The position numbers were made by a program, and so were the translations under genes. 64,000 nucleotides of DNA from a phage. The stretch is from the sequence record PV805631.1; one strand, written 5' to 3'. Within the stretch, counting starts at the first letter, position 1, and each line of letters starts with the position of its first letter. Under the pieces are notes generated by a model. The model searched no databases, had not been told where the DNA came from, and worked only from the letters and a program-made list of their open reading frames with translations. This document shows positions 1 through 60,579 of this stretch, one piece after another.

Positions 1-88
1 TGACAGGGGCTACACCCTTACACGTTAACTACCCCCCCGGTATGTTGACTCATGGGTGTACTACCCTACCCCACCTTACACGTTACAC

Positions 89-108
89 GTTGCTCCGCAA
101 CTTATGGA
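89..108 (+). promoter_or_regulatory. Candidate virion-RNAP early promoter hairpin (copy 1): GTTGC-TCC-GCAAC followed by TTATGGA
   Basis: Perfect 5-bp stem with 3-nt loop; same GC-TCC-GC core and TTRTGG downstream box recur at 768 and 4761; lies upstream of the first early ORF. Confidence 0.5.
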
Positions 109-144
109 CATGTCGTCCTATCATCAACTATTGGAGCTATCATC

Positions 145-468
145 ATGACTACTACCGCTACTGTACGTATGACCGCAGGAACTCTGCTGGGTACTGTTAA
201 CTCTGCTGCCACTACTGTGGCAGATTCATTCGGTGCTGCTACTAAAGCAGTTGGTATGCTTAATTCTTACGTAGCTACTATGGCAAAGAAACAAGCCATT
301 CGTACTAAATTAGAAATGCATACTTTCGAAAACAAATTAGCTGAAGAAACAGCTATGAACGAGACTCTTCGTAAGAAAAGTATCGAAGAATTCTGCAAAG
401 ATCCAGAAAACGCTCGTATCTATAACGCAGAATATTCAAGAATAATTGACATCCTGTCTAAAGACTAA
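145..468 (+). CDS. Hypothetical early protein (107 aa)
   Basis: ORF 52..468 trimmed to the ATG at 145, which has a GGAG 8 nt upstream and sits downstream of the hairpin at 89-101. Confidence 0.5.
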   Translation: MTTTATVRMTAGTLLGTVNSAATTVADSFGAATKAVGMLNSYVATMAKKQAIRTKLEMHTFENKLAEETAMNETLRKKSIEEFCKDPENARIYNAEYSRIIDILSKD

Positions 469-471
469 ATC

Positions 472-498
472 AATAGGAGGCTCTTCGAGCCTCCTATT
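472..498 (+). promoter_or_regulatory. Perfect 12-bp hairpin (AATAGGAGGCTC / GAGCCTCCTATT, 3-nt loop) just after the stop codon; no U-tract
   Basis: Inverted repeat read directly; stem contains an AGGAGG; related sequence reused in the terminator at 2621-2657. Confidence 0.4.
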
Positions 499-506
499 AA
501 GGGCAT

Positions 507-521
507 TAGATAGATAGATAG
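507..521. repeat. Short (TAGA)n microsatellite
   Basis: TAGATAGATAGATAG read directly. Confidence 0.6.
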
Positions 522-557
522 TCAGTTCTGTATAAAAAGATAGGAGAGATACCTACT

Positions 558-704
558 ATGAGCAAACTAAAAAACGCATTCATGCTGATTGTCAGTGTCC
601 TTGCACTTGTTGTTATGGTTTCCGTATACATTGGAAAACCTCTGGTAAACACTGACTATGGTAATGGTCAGAAAGTAAAATCCATCCTGCTAACGGATAA
701 GTAA
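558..704 (+). CDS. Small hydrophobic protein (48 aa), below the ORF-track cutoff
   Basis: ATG with AGGAGAG upstream; one predicted transmembrane helix (AFMLIVSVLALVVMVSVYIG). Confidence 0.3.
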   Translation: MSKLKNAFMLIVSVLALVVMVSVYIGKPLVNTDYGNGQKVKSILLTDK

Positions 705-767
705 AATGTCCCTGAATCTAAATCACCGTAAGAATCTCAGGATATCTTACATACCCTAAAAGACAAC

Positions 768-787
768 GACGCTCCGCGTCTTATGGA
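768..787 (+). promoter_or_regulatory. Candidate virion-RNAP early promoter hairpin (copy 2): GACGC-TCC-GCGTC followed by TTATGGA
   Basis: Same architecture as copy 1; about 100 nt upstream of the ATG at 889. Confidence 0.5.
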
Positions 788-888
788 TGATGTAAATGCA
801 TCCACTAATCATTGAAATTTTATCCTTTTGTTTGGGTGTTCTCACCGACGAGTTCACCCGTAAATCACATAAATCTGGAGAGTACAAA

Positions 889-1272
889 ATGTCTATTCAA
901 AAATTCACTTTCGGTCAATCTAACGCTGCTGCTACTTCTACTGCTAAAGCGGATAAACCTAAAGCTCAGTTCTGGCTGAACATTGGTTATGTAGCTAATG
1001 AAGGTTCCGATGATGAGAAATTCATCTCGCTGCCTACTGGTATTCCACTGGATACTCAGGAACCGCTGCCTACTAACAGCAGCAATGCTGACTTCCGTGC
1101 TATGCGTTGTGCACAGAACGATTTGTTGGAACAGTTAATTGAATATGCTCAGAACCTGAAACCAGGTGAAGAAGGTATCATTAACCTGCAAGTTCAACTT
1201 CGTCGTGTGAAAGCAGAGGCTGCTGACATCCCAGCAGACGAGAATAAATATGCTCGTAAACTGACTTTCTAA
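889..1272 (+). CDS. Hypothetical early protein (127 aa)
   Basis: ORF 796..1272 trimmed to the ATG at 889 with GGAGAG upstream; followed by a terminator. Confidence 0.5.
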
Positions 1273-1281
1273 TCAACAACT

Positions 1282-1310
1282 GGACTCCCTTCGGGGAGTC
1301 CTTTTATTTT
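1282..1310 (+). terminator. Intrinsic terminator (GGACTCCC-TTCG-GGGAGTCC + TTTTATTTT)
   Basis: 8-bp GC-rich stem, TTCG loop, U-tract. Confidence 0.7.
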
Positions 1311-1375
1311 AACTATGCGATAAACTAAGTAGAGTGTAATCCTACTTTTAGACGAAGAGAGACTAAGAGGTAAGT

Positions 1376-1870
1376 ATGAAGAAACCATATGGCTATTGGC
1401 AACAATCTGCTCACAATTTAGCCAAGATTCATGACCAATCTGATGCTCAGAGTAATGGGTACATATATGTAAAACATGATGGTAAAACCGTACTTTTACA
1501 TGTGTGGATTTGGGAGCAAATCAACGGTGCTATACCGGAAGGGTATGAGATAGACCATGAAAATGGTATCCGTTGGGACTGTAGGTTAAGCAACCTACGA
1601 TGCGTACCAAAGCTAATTAACCTAAGAAACTCAGCAAAACAAGCTAACAATACATCTGGTACTACTGGTGTAAGTATCATTACAGATAGGGGCAGAGAAT
1701 ATTGGATTGCTACATGGAGTGAGCCAGTTACAGGCAAGAAGAGAATGAAGCGCTTCAGTGTACAGAAGAATGGCTATGATACTGCTAAGCAGCTAGCCAT
1801 CAACTATCGTACAGAAGTTCTAAAAGATTTAATTAAAAATCATGACTATACAGAACGTCACGGTATGTGA
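1376..1870 (+). CDS. HNH homing endonuclease with AP2-like DNA-binding domain
   Basis: HNH_3-like motif (EIDHENG...NLR) plus AP2-like segment (NTSGTTGV...W); clear paralog of the ORF at 33131. Confidence 0.75.
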   Translation: MKKPYGYWQQSAHNLAKIHDQSDAQSNGYIYVKHDGKTVLLHVWIWEQINGAIPEGYEIDHENGIRWDCRLSNLRCVPKLINLRNSAKQANNTSGTTGVSIITDRGREYWIATWSEPVTGKKRMKRFSVQKNGYDTAKQLAINYRTEVLKDLIKNHDYTERHGM

Positions 1871-1947
1871 ATAGGGCTTTTCGACGAAGAGTCACTAAAA
1901 CTTAAACGTAAACAGAAGCAGATAACTTAGAGTAAGGAGTAATCAAG

Positions 1948-2133
1948 ATGCGTGTACTATGTAACCGTTATAATCCAGCAAAGTTAATCGACTTTATGGA
2001 ACCCATTGGTAGTCGTATGACTTATGCTGCTCGTTGGCAGGTATCCATAGCTGATAGTAGAGAACGTACTTATGACTACTTCTTTGTAGCTAAGCCTACT
2101 CGTAAACAAATCCGTAAACTTCACAAAGGATAA
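1948..2133 (+). CDS. Hypothetical protein (61 aa)
   Basis: ORF with AAGGAG upstream. Confidence 0.4.
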   Translation: MRVLCNRYNPAKLIDFMEPIGSRMTYAARWQVSIADSRERTYDYFFVAKPTRKQIRKLHKG

Positions 2134-2137
2134 TGCT

Positions 2138-2290
2138 ATGAAGCTACTGGCAGAGATTCTATGTATTTTATTAATGATACTGCTGGTAGCTGCATTTCCG
2201 TGGCTATTAGCCGTAGGTATAGTTATTGGTATGTTCCTAGCCAGAGCGAGTGATGCTCGTGGTAGGGATGAGCCAGGTGGAGATGTGTAA
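2138..2290 (+). CDS. Small membrane protein (50 aa), below the ORF-track cutoff
   Basis: ATG 8 nt after AAGGA; hydrophobic core LLMILLVAAFPWLLAVGIVIGMFLA. Confidence 0.3.
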   Translation: MKLLAEILCILLMILLVAAFPWLLAVGIVIGMFLARASDARGRDEPGGDV

Positions 2291-2322
2291 ACACTGCCGG
2301 AAGGGTATGTACGGAGGAACCA

Positions 2323-2496
2323 GTGATATTCACTAACATTGAAGATGCCATTGAAGAATGTATCTTCCGTAGATATCACACTGGAGTACAGAAACGACAC
2401 TATGGTGTTGTGCAACTCAATGGCTATCAAATGGCTGTAAGAATTGTACGTAACAATAAACCTTTTAACTTTATGTGGAGTACTAAACATGCGTAA
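2323..2496 (+). CDS. Hypothetical small protein (57 aa, GTG start)
   Basis: GGAGG 5 nt upstream of the GTG; open frame to TAA. Confidence 0.25.
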   Translation: MIFTNIEDAIEECIFRRYHTGVQKRHYGVVQLNGYQMAVRIVRNNKPFNFMWSTKHA

Positions 2497-2620
2497 GTCA
2501 TTAATCATGGGAACCAAAGCTGACGTACAGAAGATGAAAGAACGTCTGGCTGCTAAGAAACAGGCATCTGAACCAGTACGTAAGATTGTTACCTTCAATC
2601 ATCCGTGCATCAAATAGTAA

Positions 2621-2657
2621 GGAGTCCTCCAATAGGAGGCTCCTATTTTTTATTTTT
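2621..2657 (+). terminator. Intrinsic terminator (bulged stem containing AATAGGAGGCTCC, then TATTTTTTATTTTT)
   Basis: Stem-loop plus long U-tract. Confidence 0.65.
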
Positions 2658-2694
2658 GAATAGTTAGACATGTATTTAAATAGGAGAAAGAACC

Positions 2695-3003
2695 TTGAAT
2701 GAAATAGTATGCATACTTCCACACTTAGCTAAAGTAGCTGATAGGAATATACGGATACATTTACCCTTCCCATTAAGTAATCCATTTACTCGTAATGAAA
2801 GAACCACAGTAGAGGATATAGAGGTAGCTTATGAGGCTTACCTTCGCAATCGTCTTATTAGTGGTGACAAATTAATTACAGCAGAGATGGAAAGGATTGC
2901 TGGTTTTGTCACAGATAGTACAAAGAAACCTGTTGGTTTAATTGGTACTGAATCTGATGTTAACGTTATTCGTAAAATATTAATGGAGGCTCTAAGCCAA
3001 TGA
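2695..3003 (+). CDS. Hypothetical protein (102 aa, TTG start per ORF track)
   Basis: ORF track; AGGAGA upstream; start codon uncertain. Confidence 0.4.
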   Translation: MNEIVCILPHLAKVADRNIRIHLPFPLSNPFTRNERTTVEDIEVAYEAYLRNRLISGDKLITAEMERIAGFVTDSTKKPVGLIGTESDVNVIRKILMEALSQ

Positions 3004-3221
3004 TGTACATGAGCAATTATGGTATTTGCCCAGTCTGTAAGAAAGGACGTGGAGTTGCTAATCATAAGAAGTGTAGTCGTATATTGCAGAAACAACGGAA
3101 CCAGGAAGAATGGTCTAAGGTGCTGGAAAATCAGCACAAAGAAGAGAATCAACAGATGGCTGTTAAGGCATCTACTCAACGTATTCGCCGTATTAACTAT
3201 ATACAAGGATACCAAAAGTGA
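3000..3221 (+). CDS. Hypothetical Cys-containing basic protein (73 aa)
   Basis: ORF track; CPVCKK...C arrangement suggests a zinc ribbon. Confidence 0.4.
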   Translation: MMYMSNYGICPVCKKGRGVANHKKCSRILQKQRNQEEWSKVLENQHKEENQQMAVKASTQRIRRINYIQGYQK

Positions 3222-3475
3222 TTATTACATTCCCTGTAACTAAATCATTTAACTATATGGGACAAACTATTGAAGTCCCATTATGGGTTAAATATGTAGC
3301 CTTATTACCTCGTCCTCAGAAGAGTAAGAATGCCTCACTAATTGGATTTAGTAGAAAGCCTAAGCTAACTGAAAACTGTATTTGGAAGTCCAGCGGCAGA
3401 CAAGAAGAAATTGGTTTTTGTGACTATGTACCTCAACCGAATACAGTATATCTAACCCTGGAGAAAGTAGAGTGA
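3218..3475 (+). CDS. Hypothetical protein (85 aa)
   Basis: ORF track; stop/start overlap with neighbours. Confidence 0.45.
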   Translation: MIITFPVTKSFNYMGQTIEVPLWVKYVALLPRPQKSKNASLIGFSRKPKLTENCIWKSSGRQEEIGFCDYVPQPNTVYLTLEKVE

Positions 3476-3786
3476 ATAATATTGTAGTAGTACATGATAA
3501 TACATTTACTGACGTCGATAAGATGATGCGTAATATTGATTATGTATCTCAGACTAGTAAAGCATTTAATGAAAAGTTCATTATTTACTGTGAACCAGAA
3601 TCACCGCTGGTTCCCGTATTAAAGGAAGCTGGTCTACCCTTCTCTACAGAGAACTTCCCAGAGGAACCAGAGTATATGATCACATTCATATATGACTTAC
3701 ACGATGGCTCTCCTGCTAGTGAACTGGCTATGAACCAGTGGAGTAGTAAACGTCCTGTATATGCTTTCCAGGTACTTAAACCATGA
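3472..3786 (+). CDS. Hypothetical protein (104 aa)
   Basis: ORF track; stop/start overlaps. Confidence 0.5.
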   Translation: MNNIVVVHDNTFTDVDKMMRNIDYVSQTSKAFNEKFIIYCEPESPLVPVLKEAGLPFSTENFPEEPEYMITFIYDLHDGSPASELAMNQWSSKRPVYAFQVLKP

Positions 3787-4025
3787 TCTATGAAGAATAT
3801 TATGTATTCAAAAAAGGAAATGATTTTATAGCTATGCCCAATGATTACATGGATTGGCATACAACTCCTGTATTAAAAGAAGCATTTTCCGTACCTAACC
3901 TGGAAGAGGTTAATAAAGTAATGAACGGAGTAATGCTAACAAGAGGTATGGCTTACAAAATAGACGCATTAGAAGGAGCTTCTGTATGCAAAGTAACTAC
4001 ATCCATTGAGGTACTTAAACCATGA
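3783..4025 (+). CDS. Hypothetical protein (80 aa)
   Basis: ORF track; stop/start overlaps. Confidence 0.45.
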   Translation: MIYEEYYVFKKGNDFIAMPNDYMDWHTTPVLKEAFSVPNLEEVNKVMNGVMLTRGMAYKIDALEGASVCKVTTSIEVLKP

Positions 4026-4402
4026 AAGCTATCTCATTAGGTGATAACACCAATACTCTAATGGGTGAAACTGCTCGCTCAATTACTATTGTTAATAAAC
4101 ATCATGGTAAATCCGGTGAGTATATTGGGCGTGGCTCACCGTTAGGCAATCCATTCATCATTGGTAAACATGGAACCAGAGAGCAAGTAATTGCTAAGTA
4201 TAGAGTCTGGCTGCAAGAACAGATTGATAAAGGTAATCCAGCTGTACTGGATGAACTCAATCGTCTTGGTAATAAAGCCATTGACGAGAAAGGGCTGGCC
4301 TTACAGTGCTTCTGCTATCCCAAACCATGTCATGGTGAGGTTATTAAAGAGAAGCTCGTTCGGGCTATGTATAACTATTTTGTAGAAAATCCAAAAGGGT
4401 AA
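4022..4402 (+). CDS. DUF4326-like conserved phage protein
   Basis: YIGRGSPLGNPF motif and C-terminal C-x-C...C-H cluster recalled as typical of DUF4326; function unknown. Confidence 0.45.
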   Translation: MKAISLGDNTNTLMGETARSITIVNKHHGKSGEYIGRGSPLGNPFIIGKHGTREQVIAKYRVWLQEQIDKGNPAVLDELNRLGNKAIDEKGLALQCFCYPKPCHGEVIKEKLVRAMYNYFVENPKG

Positions 4403-4405
4403 CTA

Positions 4406-4756
4406 ATGAAAGAAATCTTAGTATTCACTACCAATGTACTTGGGCAGCATACCAATGCTGCTGCCAAGTTAGCTTATAAGAAGCACGGTGCACGTTGGGG
4501 TATGGCCTACGGTCATTATGGTAATAGCTTTGCCATTCCAGTAAGGGATGGCAATGGTAACCGAATTAAAGAGGGTGCTATCTATGGCTTCGTTGAAGGC
4601 TTTATTTCCTATGCATCTACTAATCCACAGTGGGATTTCAAAGTAATGGGAGATGACTTTCTGGACCCATACCTGTTCAATAATGTTACTGGCAATGTAC
4701 TGTTACCAGAAGCATGGCGTAAATACTTAGGTGATGCTTACAACTACTGGTCATAA
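4406..4756 (+). CDS. Hypothetical protein (116 aa), possibly Rossmann-like
   Basis: ORF track; N-terminal beta-strand/Gly motif (ILVFTTNVLGQH). Confidence 0.45.
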   Translation: MKEILVFTTNVLGQHTNAAAKLAYKKHGARWGMAYGHYGNSFAIPVRDGNGNRIKEGAIYGFVEGFISYASTNPQWDFKVMGDDFLDPYLFNNVTGNVLLPEAWRKYLGDAYNYWS

Positions 4757-4760
4757 GAAG

Positions 4761-4780
4761 GGTGCTCCGCACCTTGTGGT
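4761..4780 (+). promoter_or_regulatory. Candidate virion-RNAP early promoter hairpin (copy 3): GGTGC-TCC-GCACC followed by TTGTGG
   Basis: Same architecture as copies 1 and 2; immediately upstream of the RNAP subunit operon. Confidence 0.5.
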
Positions 4781-4804
4781 AATTAACTAATTGGAGAATA
4801 TGCG

Positions 4805-5623
4805 ATGTACTCATCTATCGAACATCAGAAGCAACTCGAAGTACTATTCAATAAAAATCAGCTCCTGCCAAGGATGCGAAAAGAGTTCGAGGACTCCAAA
4901 GAAATTGACTTTAAGGCATTCGCTGCCTATTTGGAAATTGATTATAAACTGCTCATTGATGCAATGGTGCAGATTGCCCTACATAAACGTGCTGACATCC
5001 AGACTATGATTGGCTCTCTCATGAGTCACTCAGATGATGCTCAGTACATCGCTGACTGTCTGTATAAGATGGCAGAGAATGACTGCTTCAACTATGACCC
5101 TACCATCGACAAGTTCGGTGTTATCTATGAGATTAGTGAAGATGTTCAGATGGAACTGGAAGCATTCCAGTATCCATTACCTATCGTAAGTGCTCCTAAT
5201 CCTGTCAGAACTAACAGGGATACTGGTTACTACCAGACTAAGGGAAGCATTATCCTCAAGAAGAACCATCATGAGATGGATGTCTGCCTTGACCATATCA
5301 ACCGTATGAACAATCAACGTCTCTGTATTAACTGGGATGTTGCTAACTATGTAAAAGACTCTCGTCCTAATATGGATAAACCCAAAGAGGGTGAAACCCG
5401 TCAGGACTATGAGAAACGTGTTAAAGCCTTTGAGAAGTACAGTCGTACCGCTAAGGAAGTAATGGAGTTAGTGACTCAGGAAGGTAATAACTTCTCACTA
5501 GCGCATAAGTACGATAAGAGAGGGAGAACCTATGCCTGTGGATACCATATTAACTATGCTGGGACGTCCTACAACAAGGCAGTGGTTGAATTTGCAGACA
5601 AAGAACTAGTAAACGAGGATTAG
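4805..5623 (+). CDS. Phage RNA polymerase II small subunit (N4 RNAP1-like)
   Basis: About 270 aa gene directly upstream of the catalytic subunit; assigned by synteny with the N4 two-subunit enzyme, no motif confirmed. Confidence 0.5.
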   Translation: MYSSIEHQKQLEVLFNKNQLLPRMRKEFEDSKEIDFKAFAAYLEIDYKLLIDAMVQIALHKRADIQTMIGSLMSHSDDAQYIADCLYKMAENDCFNYDPTIDKFGVIYEISEDVQMELEAFQYPLPIVSAPNPVRTNRDTGYYQTKGSIILKKNHHEMDVCLDHINRMNNQRLCINWDVANYVKDSRPNMDKPKEGETRQDYEKRVKAFEKYSRTAKEVMELVTQEGNNFSLAHKYDKRGRTYACGYHINYAGTSYNKAVVEFADKELVNED

Positions 5624-5624
5624 T

Positions 5625-6206
5625 ATGAAGACATGTTCAGTATGTAAGAAGAACTTGCCTCTGGACATGTTCAATAAACAGTCCACAGGTAAGCAAGGTG
5701 TAAGGGCAGACTGTAAAGACTGCCTTAAACGATTTATCCGTTCAAAACACGGAGTCATTAATCAGATGTACTCCGGTTGTATCAGTAGAACTAAGAAGAA
5801 GGGGTTTACTCCTGTATCTTTCACAAAGGAGGAACTAGAGAAATGGGTGTATTCAAGTAAAGAATTTCACGAATTATATGATGAATGGGTATCGAAAGAT
5901 TACCCAACTAACCTAAAGCCGAGCTTAGATCGGTTGGATGATTATAAAGGTTATTCACTGGACAACATTCGTATTGTTACAGCGAATACCAACGTAAAAA
6001 GGTACTACTCTGATGCAATCAATGGTATCAACACCAAATCAGCTAAGCCTGTTGAGCAGTATTCACTAGATGGTAAATACATTAAGACGTTCCATTCACT
6101 TAGTGCTGCTGCACGAAGTGTTAAGGGTATACCCTCTAATATTAATCAAGTAATTAACGGTACATATGCGCAAGCATATGGCTATAAGTGGAAACTAGGA
6201 GCCTAA
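5625..6206 (+). CDS. Diverged HNH-like homing endonuclease candidate between the RNAP subunit genes
   Basis: N-terminal CxxC...CxxC; DRLDD...NIRIVTANTN aligns with the HNH_3 motif of the other HNH ORFs but has Arg where they have the first His. Confidence 0.45.
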   Translation: MKTCSVCKKNLPLDMFNKQSTGKQGVRADCKDCLKRFIRSKHGVINQMYSGCISRTKKKGFTPVSFTKEELEKWVYSSKEFHELYDEWVSKDYPTNLKPSLDRLDDYKGYSLDNIRIVTANTNVKRYYSDAINGINTKSAKPVEQYSLDGKYIKTFHSLSAAARSVKGIPSNINQVINGTYAQAYGYKWKLGA

Positions 6207-6207
6207 G

Positions 6208-7425
6208 ATGCAGATTTTCACAGCTAAAGAATATTTAAAAATTGATATTGCCAATTCTTACGGGCTGGATAAGAAGACATGGGATGAGCGTATTAGCTGG
6301 TTCGATGAGAATGAAGCTAACCTGCTTAATCTGGTAGATGAAGCTGAAGAATCCGCACTGTTCTATGCTGGCGTAAACGCATGGAAAGACATGAAAGCCG
6401 GTAAACCTATCGGTTATGCCGTAGCTCTGGATGCTACATCATCTGGTTTGCAGTTACTGGCTTGCCTGACTGGTGACCGTTCTGCTGCTGAACTATGTAA
6501 CGTAGTTAACTACATGGGTGAGAACGGTAAGCCATTACGTCGTGATGCTTATACAGTTATCTATCACAAGATGCTGGACATCCTTGGTGAATCATCCCGT
6601 ATTAAACGTAGTGATACTAAGCAGGCAGTTATGACTGCGTTCTATGGTTCAGAAGCTAAGCCTAAAGAAGTATTCGGTGAAGGTATTCGTCTCAAGACTT
6701 TTGAGAATGTAATGGAAACAGTTGCTAGTGGACCTTGGGCACTGAACAAGTTCTTACTGCAATGTGGTAACCCGGATGCTAACCGTTACGTATGGGTACT
6801 GCCTGACAACTTCCATGCTGTCATTAAGGTCATGGTTCCAGAAGTACAGACCGTTAACTTCTTAGGTAAGCCATTCGACATCACCCGTATGGTACAGGGT
6901 ACTGAAGATAAGACTCGTATGCTCTCTGCTAACATCACTCACTCTATTGATGGGATGGTGGTACGTGAAATGCTGCGTCGTTGTAACTTCAACATGAACC
7001 AGGTGAACTATGTTAAGTCCCTCTGTGAAGGAACCAGTGAGTATATGCTGGGTACTAGCGGGAACTACGACATGGTTAGTCAACTGTGGCATAACTATGA
7101 GAAATCAGGATTCCTGTCTACCCGTATCTTTGATTATCTGGATTCTGACTCAATTAAACTGGTTGATACAGATGTAATCATGGCTATGATTAATACTATG
7201 CCTAAGAAACCATTCCCTGTAATGACTGTACATGACTGCTTCCGTTGTCATCCTAACTACGGTAATGATCTGCGTCGTCAGTACAATCAGATTCTGTCTG
7301 ACATTGCTAAGAGTGATCTACTGGGCTTCATCCTGTCTCAGGTACTGGGACAAGAGTTCTCTGCTGGTAAGCTGGATGACAGCCTCTGGCAGGACATCCT
7401 TGAAACAGACTATGCGTTAAGTTAA
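6208..7425 (+). CDS. Phage RNA polymerase II catalytic subunit (N4 RNAP2-like, T7-family)
   Basis: T7-RNAP-like motif A (LDATSSGLQLLA), motif B (RSDTKQAVMTAFYGS) and motif C (VHDCF). Confidence 0.8.
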   Translation: MQIFTAKEYLKIDIANSYGLDKKTWDERISWFDENEANLLNLVDEAEESALFYAGVNAWKDMKAGKPIGYAVALDATSSGLQLLACLTGDRSAAELCNVVNYMGENGKPLRRDAYTVIYHKMLDILGESSRIKRSDTKQAVMTAFYGSEAKPKEVFGEGIRLKTFENVMETVASGPWALNKFLLQCGNPDANRYVWVLPDNFHAVIKVMVPEVQTVNFLGKPFDITRMVQGTEDKTRMLSANITHSIDGMVVREMLRRCNFNMNQVNYVKSLCEGTSEYMLGTSGNYDMVSQLWHNYEKSGFLSTRIFDYLDSDSIKLVDTDVIMAMINTMPKKPFPVMTVHDCFRCHPNYGNDLRRQYNQILSDIAKSDLLGFILSQVLGQEFSAGKLDDSLWQDILETDYALS

Positions 7426-7432
7426 TAAACTG

Positions 7433-7467
7433 GCCTCATACCTTCGGGTATGGGGCTTTTATTTTTT
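7433..7467 (+). terminator. Intrinsic terminator (10-bp stem, TTCG loop, TTTTATTTTTT)
   Basis: Read directly. Confidence 0.7.
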
Positions 7468-7484
7468 GCTTGGAGGTAGTCAAC

Positions 7485-7667
7485 ATGACAGACATCTATG
7501 ATGTTATTACTAAAACTGTACTGATAGTTTTATCTGCTATTGTGGTATTCACTATAGCCAATGTTCATAAATCCAAGTTTTCCTATTGCTACTATGGAGC
7601 ATACTCTGCCGGTTGTTTTGTATTAGCCGGTTGGATAGCTTACTGGATTTACCGCATCAACAACTAG
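7485..7667 (+). CDS. Small membrane protein (60 aa)
   Basis: ATG with GGAGG 7 nt upstream; two hydrophobic segments; terminators on both sides. Confidence 0.4.
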   Translation: MTDIYDVITKTVLIVLSAIVVFTIANVHKSKFSYCYYGAYSAGCFVLAGWIAYWIYRINN

Positions 7668-7696
7668 CCACCCTCATGGGTGGCTTTCTTTTTTAT
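7666..7696 (+). terminator. Intrinsic terminator (AGCCACCC-TCAT-GGGTGGCT + TTCTTTTTT)
   Basis: Read directly. Confidence 0.7.
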
Positions 7697-7741
7697 CAGC
7701 CTTCATAATAATTAGGCATATTTACTCAAGAGGATACATGT

Positions 7742-8563
7742 ATGCCAACCTTAAAGATTGCGTTTAATAAAACAACCAACGTTGCTATCGTGCTTGATTC
7801 AGATGGTAGTGTTCCAGATGGTTTTGCGGAAGTAGGTACTTTTGTACATCCTGATGCCACTTACCCTGATAGCTTAGTTATCTATCACGGTGTACGTGAC
7901 CTGTTGTATAAACGTTCTGCTGAAGACCCTGCTGAAGAAGGTTTCTGGCCTAACAGCATCGTGGATATGCAGTCGATCACTATTACCCCACAACTGACTA
8001 TTGCTACCGAACTGCTTAATGAAGTCTCTGCCATCGAAGGTGAAGATATTAACTGGCATATTGATGTAGCAGGTGGTAAAGCACCTTTTACCTATAAGTG
8101 GCAATACAAAGCAGATACTGATGATGCAGTATTCACTGATATTGATTCTGATGACAACGAATCTGCTGCTACTGCAACATTGACCATTAGTGGTGTAACC
8201 GCTGCTTCTGCTGGTACTTATAAAGTGATTGTTACTGATGCTAATGGAACCACGGTGGAAGATACCTCACTGCTGACTGTAAGCTACCCCGAAGCAAGCT
8301 CACTGGTAGCTACCCCAGATTCACTGGAACTGTCTGTTGCTGACGATACTACTGATGGCAAGACTGTAACCATCACTGCTTTGCCTGTCGGAGCGTCTGT
8401 TGGTACTTTATCTATCAAGACTGCTCCGGATTCTGCCCGTGCTACAGCTACCATTTCTGGTAACGTACTAACAGTTAAACCAGTGGCAGAAGGTGAAGCT
8501 ACTTCTGTAGTAGTTACCAACGGTACTGTCGATGTAACCATCGCTATTACTGTTGCAGAGTAA
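7742..8563 (+). CDS. Ig-like domain protein, possible capsid decoration protein (N4 gp17-like position)
   Basis: Ig/Big_2-like repeats (e.g. TLTISGVTAASAGTYKVIVTD); sits right after RNAP2. Confidence 0.45.
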   Translation: MPTLKIAFNKTTNVAIVLDSDGSVPDGFAEVGTFVHPDATYPDSLVIYHGVRDLLYKRSAEDPAEEGFWPNSIVDMQSITITPQLTIATELLNEVSAIEGEDINWHIDVAGGKAPFTYKWQYKADTDDAVFTDIDSDDNESAATATLTISGVTAASAGTYKVIVTDANGTTVEDTSLLTVSYPEASSLVATPDSLELSVADDTTDGKTVTITALPVGASVGTLSIKTAPDSARATATISGNVLTVKPVAEGEATSVVVTNGTVDVTIAITVAE

Positions 8564-8613
8564 GGGTATCCCTTATTTGGGGTTATAAACCCTGAAAGGA
8601 ATCCCTCTAGTTT

Positions 8614-8642
8614 GACCTCCCTATTGAAGGGAGGTCTTTTTT
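8614..8642 (+). terminator. Intrinsic terminator (GACCTCCC ... GGGAGGTC + TTTTTT)
   Basis: Read directly. Confidence 0.7.
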
Positions 8643-8667
8643 GACTTAAACAAACCGGAGCCAGGAA

Positions 8668-8856
8668 ATGTATAAAGAGATTGCATTCTTCTCGTTCTTA
8701 TTAGGAGGGTTAATTGGTGCAGGAATTGTAGCTATTTCTAATACCTACTTTGGTTCTACTCCAAATTCTGTAACACAAACCCTCAAGCATGAATGTGAAT
8801 TGAATATCCCTCGTAACCAAAACTGTGTAATGCAGTTCGTACCGGAGAAGAAATGA
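8668..8856 (+). CDS. Small membrane protein (62 aa)
   Basis: ORF track; N-terminal hydrophobic helix. Confidence 0.35.
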   Translation: MYKEIAFFSFLLGGLIGAGIVAISNTYFGSTPNSVTQTLKHECELNIPRNQNCVMQFVPEKK

Positions 8857-9038
8857 AACTAACCCAGTCCCAAGCAATTTTCCTTCGCATGGTTCAAGGT
8901 GGTTCTGCCACCAGCAACCGTAATAACAAAACCGCACAGTCTCTTAAGAAGCTGGGCTTAGTACAGTTCAATGCTGGTCTTGGGTGGTCATTAACCCCTA
9001 CCGGTGTACTTCAACTCAACGAATTAAAAGGTAACTAA
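8853..9038 (+). CDS. Hypothetical small protein (61 aa)
   Basis: ORF track; stop/start overlap. Confidence 0.35.
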   Translation: MKLTQSQAIFLRMVQGGSATSNRNNKTAQSLKKLGLVQFNAGLGWSLTPTGVLQLNELKGN

Positions 9039-35471: not shown

Positions 35472-38400
35472 AATTTACTAAGTTCACCCAAGGGTTCAGG
35501 TTGTGAGCACGAAGCCCCTGACCAAAGCCCCATGAGTAATCCAGACTACCCTTAGCAGCAATACTAAAGATGTTGTCCTGAATAGGTAAGCCAACGTTAC
35601 CAAACATGGTAGGAGTTGGAGCCAGCATCGCCATTGCTGCATGTACTGGGTTATTGCGAATCATGGACACTGCAACCTTAGCTGAACGAATCTTAAAGTT
35701 GTAGAACCACATTAAACCAACGCTTTCCATATACCCACGGAAACGGCCCGGCAGACGGTCATAGTTAATGAACTCTTCGGTTACACGTCCCAGTGCTTCT
35801 TCACGAGTCTTACCTTTACGCTGGGTCAATTCATCATAGATGATTGCTTTAGCGATAAAGTCAGAGTACTCAACCGTCTTCTGGATACCCTGGAACAGAG
35901 CAGTATCCTTAGTGATAAGTGCATAACGACCAGCAGCACGTACAGACTTAGGTAACTTATCCGCCAGCTTTTCCATGTATTCGTGAAGTTTACCTTCAGT
36001 AATCAGGATGTCATCACGACCAATACCAGCATCTGCAATTGAAGAGAACTCACCAGCTTCTATCAGAGGCCAGATACTCATACGCTTATGGCTATCAGTA
36101 ATGGACTGAATCTCAGCCTTAAGTTTACGAATCTGGTTCGGGTTAGTAGCTGCACGTAATTCTGCTTCTGCATCTACCTGACGTAAACGAGATTTAAGGT
36201 ATTGGTTAATCTCAGCAGTCTTCCGTGGAATGCTCTTAGCAATGTTCTTAACCGGTACACCACGAGCAACCATCTGGTAAAGGTTAGCCAAAAAGTTAAC
36301 AACAGGTACGACTACTGACTTAACTACAATCAGAGTCTTAGCATCTTTAACTAAATTTTGAACCAGGTTCTCACCACCCATTAAGTACTTATAGGCACGG
36401 TTACCGGCTAAACCCAGAATAGCTTTTTTAAAAGTATTAAGCGTTTCCGGGGACCAACGAGAATTACCAGACCAAGCATCACCAATCGAAGCTGCACGAT
36501 AGCCAAGTGCATCATTCAGCATGTCACGACGTACCCACAGTTCACCCTCACCAAACAGTTTTTCTGCTTTCCGTCGAGTTTCACTGTTCATCAGCTTAAG
36601 AGCATCAGCAGTTACTGGGTCCAGTTTAGAACCAAAAAGGTTCACGTACTGGGACTTATTAGCAGCAGACATCTTAATGTCTTCCTTGTACATGCTATAC
36701 AGGTTCTCAATCAGCATATCATTGAAACGCTGAGCCTTAGCTTCTTCCACCTGACGTCCACGCCATACACCAATTGCACGGGCAAGATGATTTTCACCTT
36801 CAATATGCTTCAGCATATTAGGGTTAATTGATTGCTCATAAGCAACCACATCACCTTTAGCATTATATACAGGCAGCAGTGGTTCATTACCACGTTCACC
36901 ACGAGCTAGTGCTTTAGCGATACGGTCTACAGAAGGCTTGTCAGTAATACGACCAGCTACCATGGAACCCATAGTAAAGCCTGTACCGAGGTCTACACCA
37001 CCAGCAGTATTACGAACGTTCTGTAGAATACCTTGTGAGAACGGAGCCTGTGCCTGTACTGGGGCAAAGTAGTAGCTACGTGCCAGACCTCGGTTAGCAG
37101 AGCTACCTTGATAAGTACCCAGACGAACATAGGACTTCTCTATCAAATCACCAAACTCGCTATCTTCAGCAACAACCAGACTAACACCCTGTTTAGTCTC
37201 ACTAGGGATATACCCTTTGTACTGGTTCAGGGTTGCACGCATATCAGACTTGGCTTTAGCCATTTCATCTTTACGCTGCCCAACCAGGTAAGAAGTAGCA
37301 AAGTCCATTCCCTCAACTTCTGTCTGAGCCAGTGAAGATAACATCTCACGGTCGGACTTGTTCATTGCTTCCAGTGCATACAGGGTAATAAGTTTATCCA
37401 GTTGAGCTACATCTACAATAGAACGAGTAGTCTTACGTTCACCCAGCATACGAGAGATTGCAGTAGCATTACGCAGCAAGTTTTTACCGACTGTGCCATT
37501 AATCATGTACTGAGCCAGTTGCTTAGATTTACGGTTAATCAGAGGCCAGTTACGACCAGCTTGTTTCTGCAAATCTGCTTCCAGCTTATTCACTTCACGG
37601 TCAACAATCTTCTGGTCTGAAAGCAGGTCACGAATTTCAGCCAGAGACATGGTGTCACGCAGGACAGCTAAGTCAGTTTTACCCATACCAGTGTACATTG
37701 CTTTCCACTCATCCTTAGTCAGCTTACGGCTGAACTTAGATGCGATAGTGGTAGGCAGGTGTTCACGGAACTGCTGACGGTCAGCCTGCACCTGTGCACG
37801 GACTGCTTTAATCAAATCGTATACAGAAGCATTGCTCTTAGTACGACCGGTTAAATCATTAACCAGGTCATGGAAAGGTTGCCATACTTTACCCTGGTTC
37901 ATTGCAACCATAACGCCTTCAGCTACGTTTGCACCATTCTTCTCTGTAGCAATAGCAGCCATTAGTTGTGCAGCATGAGCAGCACCTTTGACCAATGGGT
38001 TCTTGGTATTAGCTGCAACTTCACGAGCACTTTCTAAAACACGAGTAGACAGTACATCAATAGAGTCCACCAAATACTGGTTAGCACGGTCAATAGCATT
38101 ACCACTAGGAGTAGCAACGGAATCATAGAATGACTGTGCATTTAGGCTAGTCTGCATGATTGTTTGAGCCAGTGCATCCATACCTTCCTGTACGTTGGTA
38201 GCTTTGGTATCACCTGCTACACGAGCATTCAGACTAGCCATTGCAGCAGTACCAATGTTAGTCAGCATTGCATCAACGGTATTCCCAGATTTCTTATCTG
38301 CTTTCATAACAGGAATGTTAGCCAGTACGTTACGTACCTCTTCACTTACCATTGCCAGACCAACAAAGGTAGGCAGTATTGAAGAACGACCCTGTGCATC

Positions 38401-41400
38401 AAACTCAATATTGTTAGCACCCATGATGGTATCGAACTTCTGCTGTGCATAGTAACGGTCAGCAGGGTTAGTACTATCTGGGTCAGTCATGAATGATTCA
38501 ACAGTCAGGTTCTTAGTAACGTGTGCATAGTATTCCTGTGCACGAGAAAGAGCAGCCGGACTAATAGCAGCTTCAGTAGCGAGTGCAGCAACAATGTTAG
38601 TAAAGAGACGCTGCTCCTGCATATTCATAGTGAAGCCATGAGCCTGAACATCACGGGTTACTTTAGTTGCGTGCTTTTTCGCATCAGAGAACTTACCTTC
38701 ACGGATTACTTGCTGTACTGGTTCTGAACCAATGTAGTTAGTAATCAGCTTATCAAATGTCTGTCCTAACTCTTCCAGACGGGTATTGTCACCATATGCT
38801 TTGTTATGGAACAAAGTAGTATCTTTGGCTACAGCAGCAGTAGGAGCCTGCCCACGCATAACAACTGAAGAGTTAAACAGTAAGCCAGAGAACATATCAT
38901 CAGCATTAGCAGGTGCTTCTTCACGACCAAATACCAGTCGCTTGATTGCTTCATATACAGACTGAATCATAACTTTCAGTGCTGTGGTCTTCTTCTGCTT
39001 ACTAATTAGCTCCTGGTTAGTTAAACCCCATGCCATGTACTCATTTAATGCAGCAGCTTTAGCTATTGCTGGTTCAATATAGCCATTAGACAAGTAGCCG
39101 TTAATGGTATAGAGGGCATCGGCATATGCTTCACGTACTTCCGGAGATTCATCCTTAACATCCAGAGCAAGGAACTGGTTCATCAGGTCTTCGATATTCT
39201 GGACTGCTTCGTTAGGAGTACCCTCATAGTGAGCCAGTACAGATTCAAAAGTAGAAGCATGTACCAATTCATGAACCAGAGTCTCTAAGGAAGGGGTGAC
39301 TAAGTAGATGGTCTTATCATCAAAGTTAGTCCAGCCGTATGTATTACCTGCTTCGGCAGCTTCAATATCTTCTGGTGCTGGACGGGTAATGTTCTTCTCA
39401 ATAGCGTAAGCATCCAATTGAGCAGGAGTACCGTAAACAACCTTGTAGTCTTTAGCAGCAAGGGATTTCTGTATCTCTTTCAATACTGCTTGCTGTTCTG
39501 GAGACATCTCTTTAGCCAGCTTGGTAATAGCAGTATTAGACAATAGACGTACACCAGACTTAAGTACACGACCAACTTGTTCCATTGCTGGCACTTCTTT
39601 AACAGGTGCTTCTTTAGTAGGTACTTCTTTCACTGGATCTGCTTTAGCAGCACGTACTGCATCACGACGCTTATTTAATTCAGCATCAAACAGTTCGTTC
39701 AGCTTAGCTACTTGCTGGTCTACAGTCAGTCCCTCAAGAGAAATTTTACCGTTGTTCACATAAGGAGCACCTACAGCAGCCATCTGGTCAACAGTGGTCT
39801 GTACCTGGTTCATTACTTTGTGGCGAATATCCACACTTAAAGCAATGTTACGCAGGTTACGCTCAATAAGGTTAACACCGGAATTCTTAATCATATCAAT
39901 CTTATACTGCCTGTCTCCCTCAACGCGACTGATATGAGAAAGCTGTTCAAAATCTAAAGCGGAACGGGCAATGTCATCAATTGTCTTATCTGACAACTTA
40001 TCAAAGTCTACATTCTTCAAGAACTCAGAGAAGGATTCATATACAGCCTTGATAGGATTCCCCTGCCAGGAAGTGTATACAGCCTCGTTTGCTTTACGAC
40101 TTGCATCAGTGATGTCACTAATACCAATGTTCATACCATCAAAGATTTTCAGGGTATTCTTCGGAGCACCTTTCATAGTAGAAAGGGTCTGCATCATCAT
40201 GCCATCACCAGTACCGATGGTCATAAATGGAATACCTGCAACACCTGCTTGTGAAGGAGCATAGATGCTCATTGGCACACGCATACGGTCATCTAAGTTG
40301 GTAGCCAGTACTTGGTTAGCAACGTCAGTACTCTCACTGCCAGCAAGGTAGAAAGTCTGTGAGCCAGTCTCAATCATTGGAGCCAGTGGTGATAATGATT
40401 CCTGGATTTCATTCAGTTCTTTCTGTGTTAAGAAATCACCCTTCTTCCAGGTTGGGTCTTTTTCTTTTTCTGCTAGCTTAGCCTGTACTGCTTGCTGGAA
40501 CATATCCTGCAATACCAGGGACTGAATCTGAGTAGCCTTCTGCAAGTTCTCAGTAGAGTACATCAGACCTTCACCAACAGTATTACGGATACCAGTACGC
40601 ATTGGTTCAACGAACAAATGGAGCATATTCTCTTGTAAGTTCTTCAGAGCATTACCGGATACGGTAAATTTCTGAGGGTCTAACTTACCAGTCAGAGCAC
40701 CATCTACTTCCTTAATAAATAACTTACCCTTACGCTTAGCTGGAATCTTACCGGTCAGTGCTTCCATAGAAGTAAGGAAAGTATCCAGCATAGCCTGAGC
40801 ATCTGCCTCAGACGCAGCCTCCTTACCAAACATTGCCATAGCCGGGGAAATGCTAGGGTCAGCAGCACGTGCTTGCAGAACGTCGCTGAAGCGTTCGTAG
40901 ATGGTGTCAGTAATTGCACTGACCATCTTGCCAGCAATACCACGAGCACCAGAACCATAGATGGTAATGGTCAGAGGGTTCTTAGCGATACCACGTTTCA
41001 GGTCCAGAGTACCATCTTCATTCAGGTTAAAGTCTTTAATGAACAGGTCCATTAACTTCTGGAGATGATTTATCTGGTTCATAACTGGAACGTTGTTACG
41101 GTAAGTAGTACGTAACTCATTCAGTGCTTGTTGTAGACCATTGGTAGATGCTTCATACAAGTCAACATTATCGTCGATAGAACAATGTTCATTCATCGTT
41201 TTACCAGCACGACCGAAAAACAAACCACCTTTGGCAGTATTCTTAATCCAGTCTGGAGTGAACTTACCACCGGTCATTAATACCATTGCGTTGATTGGGC
41301 CGTTGGTTACACCATCAGCTTCAACGTACAGAGGGGTAGTAAAATTAACACGATCATCACTGTTCAGGTAACGGGCATATTCCATCAGAGCCATGAGAGC

Positions 41401-44400
41401 CACGAAGGATTTGTTATCACCCAGAGAGGTTTTCAGAATATCTACTGCATCAGTAGGTAAGTAGCCAGACTTATCAAACTCGACCATCATATCAACAGCA
41501 GGTTTCAGATTACCTTCCAGAGCTTTGGTCAGATTTTCAGACATAGCTTCACGGGACATTTTATGTACCTTGATGCCTAATGCCTGAGCCAGACCTAACT
41601 GGAAGTCAGAGAACGCTTGGCTGTTTTCATTACTCAAGTCAATAGTAGAGAAGGTTGGCAGAATTGCTTCACGAACCAGCTTACTGGATTGTGGGTTATT
41701 CTTACCAAGCATCTGCATACGACCTACACGGGTCATGTTGTAACCGTAGTGAATGGGGGTATCCAAACCATTCTCTTGTTCTTTTAGCTGATTAATTAAA
41801 CCGAACAAGGAATCATATGCCATAGACACAGACAGGTTTTTACCCTCCAGTGACTTAGCAGTGTTACCGTTCAACAGTTTAGGATTAAGAGTACCAGCAC
41901 CCATCAGTTCCAGAATGCCGTCACGCCCCAATGCTTCATAGAAGTTAACCATCGGCATGTGTACACGGAACTCCGTAGCCTGTTCAGCTTTCAAAGCAGC
42001 TTTCTGTTCCGGGGTATTCCTAACAGCAGGGTTACGTAACTGAGTTTGAGCCACGGAAGGAATGTCATCACCGAAGTACGTTTTCTCTTCCGGATTTACC
42101 AGCACAGCTTCCTCAATTGCTGTAGGGAAATTATTAATAGGGTCTTTATCTGCCAACTTATTAATAGTGTACAGACCAATAGTCTTATTAGAGTCCGGGT
42201 CAATCTCAGACACATCCAGCATAGTCTCAGTAACTGCACCCATCTCAATGAGGGAAGACAGAATCTCTGTAGCCATTGCCACTGGAATACCCTTGGTATA
42301 ACCCAGTGGTGCATTAGGGTTACGGTTTAAACCCCAGTAGGATTCAATCTTTTGAGCCAGTGAGTTAGTAGCCTCAATCAGAGTCTGGGCATTATCAAAC
42401 TCAGCCAGAATACTTTCTGGTAACAGAGATGCATCTACACCAGTAATAGCAGCCACGTCTTTCATGTCTTTAATGGCAGCATTCTGTGTAGCAGTCAGTC
42501 GCCATTGCAAACCAGCAAGTACAGCAGTCTCTAACAACTGATCATTGAACTTAAAGGTATCCCCGTCTTTCTCTACGATGTTAAGTAACTTACCACCTAC
42601 CCAACGGTTAGCCTCAGTACCTTCTGCAAAACGTTTACCAACATTCTTATTAGCAAGGAACTTAGCCAGTCGTTCAGACAAAGTAGTCTTCAAAGTTTCC
42701 CCAAAGTCCATCAAGTCTTGATAGCGTTCTAACACATCACCTGCGAGAACGTTATTTTCTTTTTGAGTGAACGCTTCAAAGCGAGCAGCAGAAGACAGTG
42801 CTTTCTTGATATCAGCCAAAGGAGATTCTGAACCAATGGTACGAGTCTTAGGTTCTTCCGGTAAGGTAAATGCTTTCAGAAACTGGTTCGGTGTCTTTTC
42901 ATTGTTATAGACAGGGAACACTGCTTCCATTCCAGAAAGAGGTTTGCCACCCACTGTATAATCTGCTTTCAGCTGAGCCAGTGATACTTCATCTTCCTCT
43001 ACGTTGTTAGTGTTAAGACCAGAGGTATCTACACCAACCAGAATATGTGCATTATTGGCTTCAACGAAAGATTGAACAGTATTGAATTGTTCAGCAGTCA
43101 GTTTCTGATCATCGAACAGCTGTAAGGACACAAACGGTTGTTCGCTGCCTTTATAGAACATAGAGCGAATAGCACCTGTATCCAGAGACATATCACGATA
43201 ACCATCATGACCAAATACATCGGACAGGCTGATATGGTCGCCATTAGAGCCAACCACAGTACCATCAGCAAACAGCCATGGACTCTCTCTACGATCACCA
43301 TACTTATTAAGAGTTTCCTGTGAAATAGTATTTTCTTTCACATAAGCATCTCTTTCAGATTCGGTAGGTTGCTCGATGGTATCCTCATTAGTAAGGGTAG
43401 CATCATCTACAACCGGGCTAGCCTTTTCAGACTTAGGTACTTTCTCTTCCTGTACAGGTGTAACTTCTGGCTGGGAGAATGTATTACGTACATAGTTCAT
43501 AAAATCATTACGTGCTTGGGAAGGGGAAGACCATACTTCCCGTGTGCTACGTAAACTAAAGATTCGACCTTCAGGAGTCATTACGTAAGGTACATTTGTT
43601 TTACCGTACTTAAATGAAGTGAGTACATCTGACTTACCAGTAACAGTGCTTTCCCCTGGAATGACAATAGTCTTACCACCAGTAGAAGGAACAGCACGAA
43701 CACCCTCAATATCCTTACCAAGAGAAATATACTCTTTACCGTTGTAATCAAAGTACTGACCTATCTGCATATAGGTAGCTTGTTGCTTACCAGTAAACTC
43801 AGCAGTTTTCATCTCCGGGCCGTTAGGTACAGACGTACTTTCAGACTTAGGCTTAGATACTTTCTCTGGTTCTGACTTAGACTCTACAGTGTTAGGGGCA
43901 GTCTCTTTTGCTTCGACTGGTGCAGTTTTTGACTGTACAGTAATGGCTGGTTCCTGTGTTTTTACAGGTGTTTCATCAACCTGATTCACTGGTTCATTAG
44001 TCTGTTGGGACTGAGTGGCATTAAGACCACCTTGACGGAACTCTTTAACTACCTGGGCAGCTGGCTTGTTCAGACGTGAATCCAACGAGGTAACTTTCAC
44101 ATGAGAAACATTAAGCTCCGGGTAAGCCGTAGCAAGTGCATTAGCAATATCAGCTACGGTTTTGGCCTCCAGTGCTACTTGCTGGGCAAACTTAACAGAC
44201 TTGGTATCATAAGGATTAACACCGAGGCCAGTACGACTACGTACCCATTCACGGGTAGGCGTGAGAGCCTGATAATGAACAGACTTATTCTTATCCGCAT
44301 TCCCCGAAATCAGATGCTCATTCAACGCTCCGACCTTATTCTGCATGTGCTGGGCGAACTTCATAAAATCGCTCAGATAAGCGGAAGCCAAATCGAAGTT

Positions 44401-46731: not shown

Positions 46732-46795
46732 AGCATGTTTCCTGTTCAAACTTATATCGTATATAGGTAACTTACTCTACAGTAAGCCAGTTAAA

Positions 46796-60332: not shown

Positions 60333-60579
60333 AGGGATTTTCTCAGGTTAGTTAAGTCGTAATTGACTAAAACAGTCTACCTAATGACTTGTTTTTGGTA
60401 CAACAAAAACCCACCCCCCGCAACCTAGTTGGGCTGGTTAAAGCCTGAAATATGGAACAGCAGTCACCAAAACAACAAAGACCATACTTAGGGTTGAGAC
60501 AACCATATGGGTGGCTATATGCGTATAATATTTTTAGGGAGCAAGTGTATACTTGCTCCCCAGAGTTATCTCAGAGTCA

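Follow-up and report, generated by a model that had tools for sequence, protein, structure and literature searches.

Candidate early promoters of an N4-type virion RNA polymerase at the left end of a G7C-like phage genome

Results

Three hairpins precede genes for the early-to-middle transcription switch

At the left end of a 64,000-nucleotide stretch of phage DNA (sequence record PV805631.1; the whole stretch is referred to as the window), three short inverted repeats, termed P1, P2, and P3, precede the homologues of the N4 genes gp1, gp2, and gp15, and these repeats are very probably the early promoters of the phage, recognized by its virion-encapsidated RNA polymerase (vRNAP). Positions 1–5400 of the window match the left end of Escherichia phage vB_EcoP_G7C (HQ259105) with 99.6% identity, and by its sequence the window represents the left portion of the genome of a G7C-like Gamaleyavirus (Enquatrovirinae, Schitoviridae), i.e., of an N4-like phage. 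The homologue of gp16 forms one unit with that of gp15, and in N4 these two proteins constitute the middle RNA polymerase RNAPII, while gp2, which binds single-stranded DNA, recruits RNAPII to DNA, and the cofactor role of gp1 rests on preliminary evidence (PMC4496689). As the genes downstream are the homologues of gp1, gp2, gp15, and gp16, the three hairpins front exactly the genes for the switch from early to middle transcription. This agrees with an initial reading of the DNA (the original prediction), which had placed the first two copies before the first early open reading frames (ORFs) and the third before an operon of RNA polymerase subunits. All features are compiled in Table 1.

Table 1. 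Promoter candidates, genes, and terminator-like elements of the window.
Feature	Position	Strand	Remarks
P1 hairpin GTTGC-TCC-GCAAC	89..101	+	-17 to -5; rightward transcription; the template (-) form 5'-GTTGC-GGA-GCAAC-3' is the functional hairpin
P1 spacer TTAT (-4 to -1) and initiating GG	102..107	+	predicted start G106, from the spacing rule and template +1C (PMC4496689)
gp1 homologue	145..468	+	65% identity to N4 gp1, E 1e-49; first gene after P1; annotated in the G7C record
Long hairpin after gp1	470..500	+	corresponds in position to the N4 post-gp1 terminator; no + strand T-run, status uncertain
P2 hairpin GACGC-TCC-GCGTC	768..780	+	-17 to -5
P2 spacer TTAT and initiating GG	781..786	+	predicted start G785; gp2 ATG 11 nt downstream, at 796
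gp2 homologue	796..1272	+	68% identity to N4 gp2, E 4e-84; first gene after P2
Terminator-like hairpin and T-run after gp2	1282..1311	+	likely end of the P2 unit
P3 hairpin GGTGC-TCC-GCACC	4761..4773	+	-17 to -5
P3 spacer TTGT and initiating GG	4774..4779	+	predicted start G4778
gp15 homologue, RNAPII small subunit	4805..5623	+	65% identity to N4 gp15; first gene after P3
gp16 homologue, RNAPII large subunit	6208..7425	+	69% identity to N4 gp16; one unit with gp15
Terminator-like hairpin and T-run after gp16	7432..7467	+	likely end of the P3 unit
vRNAP (gp50 homologue)	35470..46731 (ORF 35470-46749)	-	putative reader of P1–P3

Sequences and coordinates of the three hairpins are exactly those originally given, and the GC-TCC-GC core that had been called invariant is present as GCTCCGC at all three sites. 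On both strands of the whole 64 kb, perfect hairpins with a 5-bp stem and a TCC loop occur only at P1, P2, and P3, and the heptamer GCTCCGC itself is found three times, always on the + strand (92, 771, 4764). This bare heptamer count is at chance level for the window (3 observed vs 2.85 expected), and the significance of the three sites therefore depends on the stems and the GG being required as well. When the window was simulated 1000 times with a first-order Markov model, GCT(C/T)CGC flanked by three more complementary pairs was seen at a mean of 0.12 copies per sequence, with three or more copies in 1/1000 simulations; if GG at the fixed spacing was also required, the mean was 0.006 copies and no simulation had more than one, compared with the three copies observed. 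All three sites are intergenic, each with a same-strand start codon 11–39 nt farther downstream, and they lie inside the first 4.8 kb of the ~72 kb genome, with none elsewhere in the window. A relaxed scan of the window that accepted four of five pairs, a TCC or TTC loop, and a C:G closing pair gave no extra site with heptamer and GG. The hairpin GGCTC-TTC-GAGCC at 479 was considered as a fourth promoter and rejected, as it is the top of the long post-gp1 hairpin and has neither the heptamer nor -8G nor GG.

The sites carry the published determinants of N4 vRNAP promoters

Promoters of the N4 vRNAP are conserved from -17 to +1, with a GC-rich heptamer centered at -11 between inverted repeats; the polymerase recognizes -11A/G, -10G, -8G, and +1C of the template strand, the loop-closing G:C pair with the 3'A and 5'G of the loop is a determinant, and the four bases before the start, to which no base contacts are made, serve as a ruler (review by Lenneman and Rothman-Denes, PMC4496689). 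The template strand of P1, P2, and P3 has -12A, -11G, -10G, -9C, and -8G, the G:C closing pair, the 4-nt spacer, and +1C/+2C, and, as far as can be read from the letters, all published sequence determinants of this promoter class are present. The stems, with 5 perfect pairs and a 3-nt loop, lie in the 5–7 bp range of the class, and by sequence the template +1C is positioned 4 nt past the stem, which is 8 nt downstream of -8. The outer stem bases are free but complementary, with nine different stems, all perfect, in the loci of Enquatrovirinae and of the phages inbricus and Axy11. Transcripts are predicted to start at 106, 785, and 4778. Mini-hairpins of the type GCGNAGC are described as extraordinarily stable (PMC13037366), the template core 5'-GCGGAGC-3' of all three sites fits this type, and the asymmetry between template and non-template strand has a sequence basis in this core.

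The three sites are positional orthologues of the N4 early promoters

The N4 genome (NC_008720) has counterparts at all three places, namely GTTGC-TTC-GCAAC followed by ttatGG at 90 before gp1, GAAGC-TCC-GCTTC followed by ttttGG at 559 before gp2, and GCTGC-TCC-GCAGC followed by ttttGG at 4548 before gp15. The published N4 P2 template oligonucleotide, with the sequence 5'-...CCAAAAGAAGCGGAGCTTC...-3', is the template of an initiation complex with two GTPs that was analyzed by cryo-electron microscopy (PMC13492108). This oligonucleotide shows the arrangement CC-AAAA-stem, and its reverse complement is the sequence of the N4 site at 559. This match fixes the identity of P2 and assigns GG to +1/+2. 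When each site of the window was aligned with its N4 counterpart, with the alignments anchored on the flanks, P1–P3 fell on N4 P1, P2, and P3, and the comparison with N4 that had been proposed along with the original prediction thus revealed positional orthologues, one of them tied to a published template.

The P1 hairpin has a single difference from its N4 counterpart, a base of the loop, and the block around it is conserved from about -45 to +15. P2 shows a compensated change of a C:G to an A:T stem pair relative to N4 P2, and at P3 two pairs are changed, with compensation, in comparison with GCTGC..GCAGC of N4 and GCAGC..GCTGC of BaqKoxi, which occupy the same place before gp15. The upstream flanks of P2 and P3 have diverged from N4, the hairpin core is invariant, and the initial transcribed sequence is conserved. 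We also observed that the conservation of P1 with N4 (window 45-120) exceeds the published range of -17 to +1 and includes a tandem TTACACG TTACACG that abuts the hairpin; this extended block is inside the terminal repeat, and it may have a role in genome ends or injection instead of transcription.

The genome encodes a vRNAP with the N4 recognition residues

The gp50 homologue is the only ORF of the window that exceeds 900 amino acids, with a length of about 3.7 thousand residues, and it matches the N4 vRNAP structures at E = 0. Its identity to N4 gp50 is 66% overall and 70% in the mini-vRNAP domain. For the comparison of single residues, the mini-vRNAP numbering was used, which is the full-length position minus 997 and by which nine of the nine named residues land on the right amino acid in N4. 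The five residues that make base-specific contacts (K114, R119, W129, D901, R904) are all identical to N4 and reside in identical local sequence, and K268, K849, and K850 are also identical. With these contact residues in a gp50 homologue, the same genome contains the enzyme and the recognition surface for -11G, -10G, -9C, and -8G, as is the case for the cognate polymerases of this promoter class. The original assignment to early promoters of an N4-type vRNAP is supported by the N4-like character of the genome, by the counterparts at the same three positions in N4, and by the encoded gp50 homologue.

Compensated stem changes among relatives

Related loci were collected by tblastn from a phage collection and from diverse Schitoviridae, as a search with the single protein gp15 gave only close relatives, and the complementarity test was anchored on the heptamer alone to avoid circularity. 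In 209 kb from 12 phages, 46 heptamers were found, and the three outer pairs were complementary in 33 of them, with a chance expectation of 1/64. In the heptamer-anchored alignment, changes on both sides of the three variable pairs were counted in 33 cells, compared with 10.2 +/- 2.5 after shuffling, with the observed count reached in 0 of 500 shuffles, and the covariation score of 0.476 fell to 0.08 or less once the 3' partners were slid. A compensated difference is also seen among the P1 orthologues, which have GTTGC/GCAAC in the window and N4 but CATGC/GCATG in other Gamaleyaviruses. The claim that the covarying stems reflect selection on structure is thereby strengthened, and the absence of the motif from related genomes, named beforehand as an outcome that would speak against promoters, was looked for; the motif is present in relatives, with compensated stems.

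Stem covariation alone cannot separate a DNA hairpin from an RNA hairpin. It could therefore be argued that the hairpins act in the RNA of rightward read-through transcripts, in processing or stability, with the covariation reflecting RNA structure, and P2 and P3 could indeed be transcribed by read-through from upstream units. Between the left genome end and P1, however, there are about 90 nt, with nothing upstream that could transcribe P1, the invariant bases are those that the N4 vRNAP contacts on the template DNA, and GG follows at a fixed distance of 4 nt. In addition, an RNA hairpin with a 5-bp stem and a UCC loop would be weak, and no Rfam family matched in positions 1-9000, so that a function in RNA is highly improbable in our view.

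The location of the inverted repeats just upstream of genes would also fit operators, i.e., palindromic duplex sites for a phage or host regulator. Against this, the outer stem bases vary freely while they stay complementary, which fits a structure rather than an operator that is read by its sequence, half-sites of only 5 bp would be available, and the asymmetric loop is kept in a strict orientation, with 32 of the 33 fully complementary heptamer sites on the early-gene strand. A known reader with conserved contact residues is also present in the vRNAP, and we give the operator explanation very little credit. A role as intrinsic terminators for leftward transcription could be considered because the - strand forms of 768-780 and 4761-4773, which are followed by T-rich sequence, were flagged as terminator-like in a consensus scan. 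P1 was not flagged, there are no - strand genes nearby, the stems have only 5 bp, and an invariant loop with invariant closing pairs across genera is not a property of terminators; this explanation is extremely improbable, and the two calls (780-768 and 4773-4761) were discarded as artefacts of the T-rich upstream flank.

In line with promoters of the N4 type, the region behind the stems is constrained in its length. A TTRTGG box, as originally described, exists in the window with TTATGG at P1 and P2 and TTGTGG at P3, but it is not conserved as such. Relatives carry various tetranucleotides behind the stem (ttat, ttgt, tttt, taaa, cttt, ttta, tatt, ttga, ttaa), and what stays constant is the length of 4 nt and the GG that follows. 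Among 26 distinct sites with perfect stems in the loci of Enquatrovirinae, inbricus, and Axy11, 25 have GG at this distance, and only the G7C site at 503 deviates. A variable spacer of constant length matches the published "molecular ruler."

Among the Rothmandenesvirinae, Pseudomonas phage inbricus and Achromobacter phage Axy11 have the same hairpin. A strict scan (perfect 5-bp stem, 3-nt loop) gave no GCT(C/T)CGC promoters in Ea9-2, RHph_Y38, and LIT1, and one doubtful site without GG in HN03. In the locus of Shigella phage B2 (L020, Humphriesvirinae), we noticed five variant hairpins on the + strand (2413, 3243, 4510, 4562, 7040), all upstream of the gp15 homologue. They have the form NNNNC-TTC-GNNNN with GG at a distance of 4 nt behind the stem (often TGGTGGA), and -8 is not conserved in them; these sequences suggest that the vRNAP specificity of Humphriesvirinae is a different one.

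The set of hairpins differs between related genomes

The number of three copies holds for the window but is not a constant of the lineage, as the G7C reference has a fourth hairpin, the relatives have 3–4 per genome, and four sites are listed for phage KP8. The fourth hairpin of G7C, AACGC-TCC-GCGTT followed by gtttCG at record position 503, has no GG start, and it resides in a 77-bp segment (HQ259105 469-545) that the window lacks, with the junction at window 468-470. A second G7C segment of 365 bp (HQ259105 791-1155), which holds gp1.2, is likewise missing, with the junction at 704-706. The flanking region 1-706 has an identity to G7C of only 96–98%, compared with 99.96% for 696-6000. In the G7C record, a terminal repeat of 1160 bp duplicates P1 at the right end, which is outside the window.

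In relatives, many P2-type hairpins share an upstream element TTAAAA(A)CCA, which spans about -29 to -18 (L004:136-147, L004:420-431, L005:2214-2225, L007:1572-1583, L009:2610-2621, L010:2192-2203, and L013:1393-1404 of the collected loci) and is also found at paralogous copies in the same genome; in its place, P2 of the window has a weaker CCTAAAAGACAAC (754-767). In the N4 literature that we examined, this element is not described as a promoter determinant. The early-promoter set is not fixed in this lineage. It is conceivable, though rather doubtful, that small cassettes, each bringing a hairpin promoter together with its own upstream determinant, are acquired and lost, which would tune the early-gene dosage.

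Surroundings of the predicted early units

Positions 1-9000 contain 8 sigma-70-like sites, compared with 23.3 +/- 4.5 in shuffled sequences (a depletion of about three-fold), and 19 terminator-like hairpins, an enrichment over the 5.1 +/- 2.4 of the shuffles. The depletion and the terminators after gp2 and gp16 are consistent with a polymerase-specific early transcription.

Some further observations concern the genes of the window. An internal ATG at 889 in gp2 is preceded by a strong GGAG. The early region contains two ORFs for HNH homing endonucleases (1376-1870 and 5625-6206), neither of which is found in N4, and the second separates gp15 from gp16, the genes for the RNAPII subunits. The gene in the place of the tailspike gene gp63.1 (window ~60410-62812) does not match G7C, and for 60572-62754 we found an identity of about 88% to genes for tail fibres in podophages of Enterobacter cloacae (e.g., PQ039553). 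By its sequence, this looks like a swap of a receptor-binding module, and because of this difference, the window belongs to a G7C-like phage and not to G7C itself.

Discussion

Our analysis indicates with high probability that P1, P2, and P3 are early promoters of this G7C-like phage and are recognized by its own vRNAP, but several points weigh against this conclusion. The promoter activity that we infer for this phage comes from orthology. A residue of the vRNAP that contacts the DNA backbone differs from N4 (K267N). Nearest-neighbour DNA folding returns the 5-bp stem with its 3-nt loop as the minimum-free-energy fold of both strands at P1–P3, but the energies of -3.3 to -4.7 kcal/mol (z -0.9 to -2.0) do not set the hairpins apart from shuffled sequences, and the two strands, template and non-template, hardly differ in how well they fold; for the additional stability of the GGA loop, we rely on the literature and not on this computation. 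Finally, the leader of gp2 from the predicted P2 start would comprise only 11 nt and has no classical Shine-Dalgarno sequence. This leader, GGATGATGTAA, has a conserved counterpart in N4, GGATGAAGTA, and the first 20 codons are likewise conserved, with differences that are synonymous; in view of this conservation, the gp2 start codon at 796 looks real.

A mechanism for these promoters can be taken over from N4. The left genome end would enter the cell first, together with the vRNAP, and negative supercoiling driven by gyrase would extrude the inverted repeats as cruciforms. The single-stranded DNA-binding protein (SSB) of the host would then melt the non-template hairpin with its TCC loop and spare the hairpin of the template strand, whose core 5'-GCGGAGC-3' would form a mini-hairpin of the GNA type with a sheared G:A pair. 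The vRNAP would be expected to read -11G by R119, with the base stacked on W129, -10G by K114 and D901, -9C by D901, and -8G by R904, and its beta-intercalating hairpin would set the junction between stem and single strand at -5/-4. The four uncontacted bases would act as the ruler, and synthesis would begin with two GTPs opposite the template CC. In this way, P1 would drive gp1, P2 would drive gp2, and P3 would drive gp15 and gp16, which correspond to the four proteins of N4 middle transcription.

The hairpin class, its mechanism, and its structure are already textbook knowledge for N4, and such predictions are routine in papers on N4-like genomes. The G7C GenBank record has no promoter features in its first 9 kb, and we found no open-access paper that lists G7C promoters, a search outside of which the original G7C paper lay; the literature searched also yielded no transcript data for this phage. 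To the annotation of a G7C-like genome, our analysis adds three predicted starts (106, 785, and 4778) and three early units, and little beyond that; the new genomes do show the compensatory stem evolution that N4 mutagenesis predicts.

Among the closest known systems is that of N4 itself, whose promoters P1–P3 (Haynes & Rothman-Denes 1985; Glucksmann et al. 1992, via PMC4496689) resemble those of the window in position, in orientation, and in architecture, i.e., a 5-bp stem with a 3-nt loop, the heptamer GCT(C/T)CGC centered at -11, and a start at GG behind a spacer of 4 nt. The loop of N4 P1 is TTC (-11A), whereas that of the window is TCC (-11G), and both fit the published -11A/G rule; the spacers are TTTT at P2 and P3 of N4 and TTAT or TTGT in the window. 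The N4 sites have been mapped experimentally, whereas those of the window are predicted from sequence. For Klebsiella phage KP8, four putative promoters P1–P4 have been listed (PMC6950046, Table 1). The hairpin of the putative KP8 P1, ACGTTGCTCCGCAACCTATGGA, is the same as that of P1 in the window, and the putative KP8 P2, AAGACGCTCCGCGTCTTATGGA, is identical to P2 of the window through the GG (PMC6950046); the sets differ in number, with four sites in KP8 and three in the window, and both are predictions.

Another such system is that of Pseudomonas phage LUZ7, whose early hairpin promoters were mapped by ONT-cappable-seq, with 5' ends at a G downstream of the hairpins (PMC9163698). LUZ7 shares with the window stems that have 4 bp or more, a 3-nt loop that is conserved, and a preference for a G start, and its promoters are read by a co-injected vRNAP; it differs in belonging to another subfamily, in having nine early starts, and in the distance of these starts from the hairpin center of 13–14 bp (PMC9163698). 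In the early region of LIT1, which is related to LUZ7, the heptamer GCTCCGC was not found by the strict scan. The RNA polymerases of the T7 type belong to the same family as the vRNAP, and specificity loop, beta-intercalating hairpin, and upstream recognition element are shared, with a promoter that extends from -17 to about +1. The T7 promoters are read by their sequence as a duplex, whereas promoters of the N4 type are read as an extruded single-stranded hairpin.

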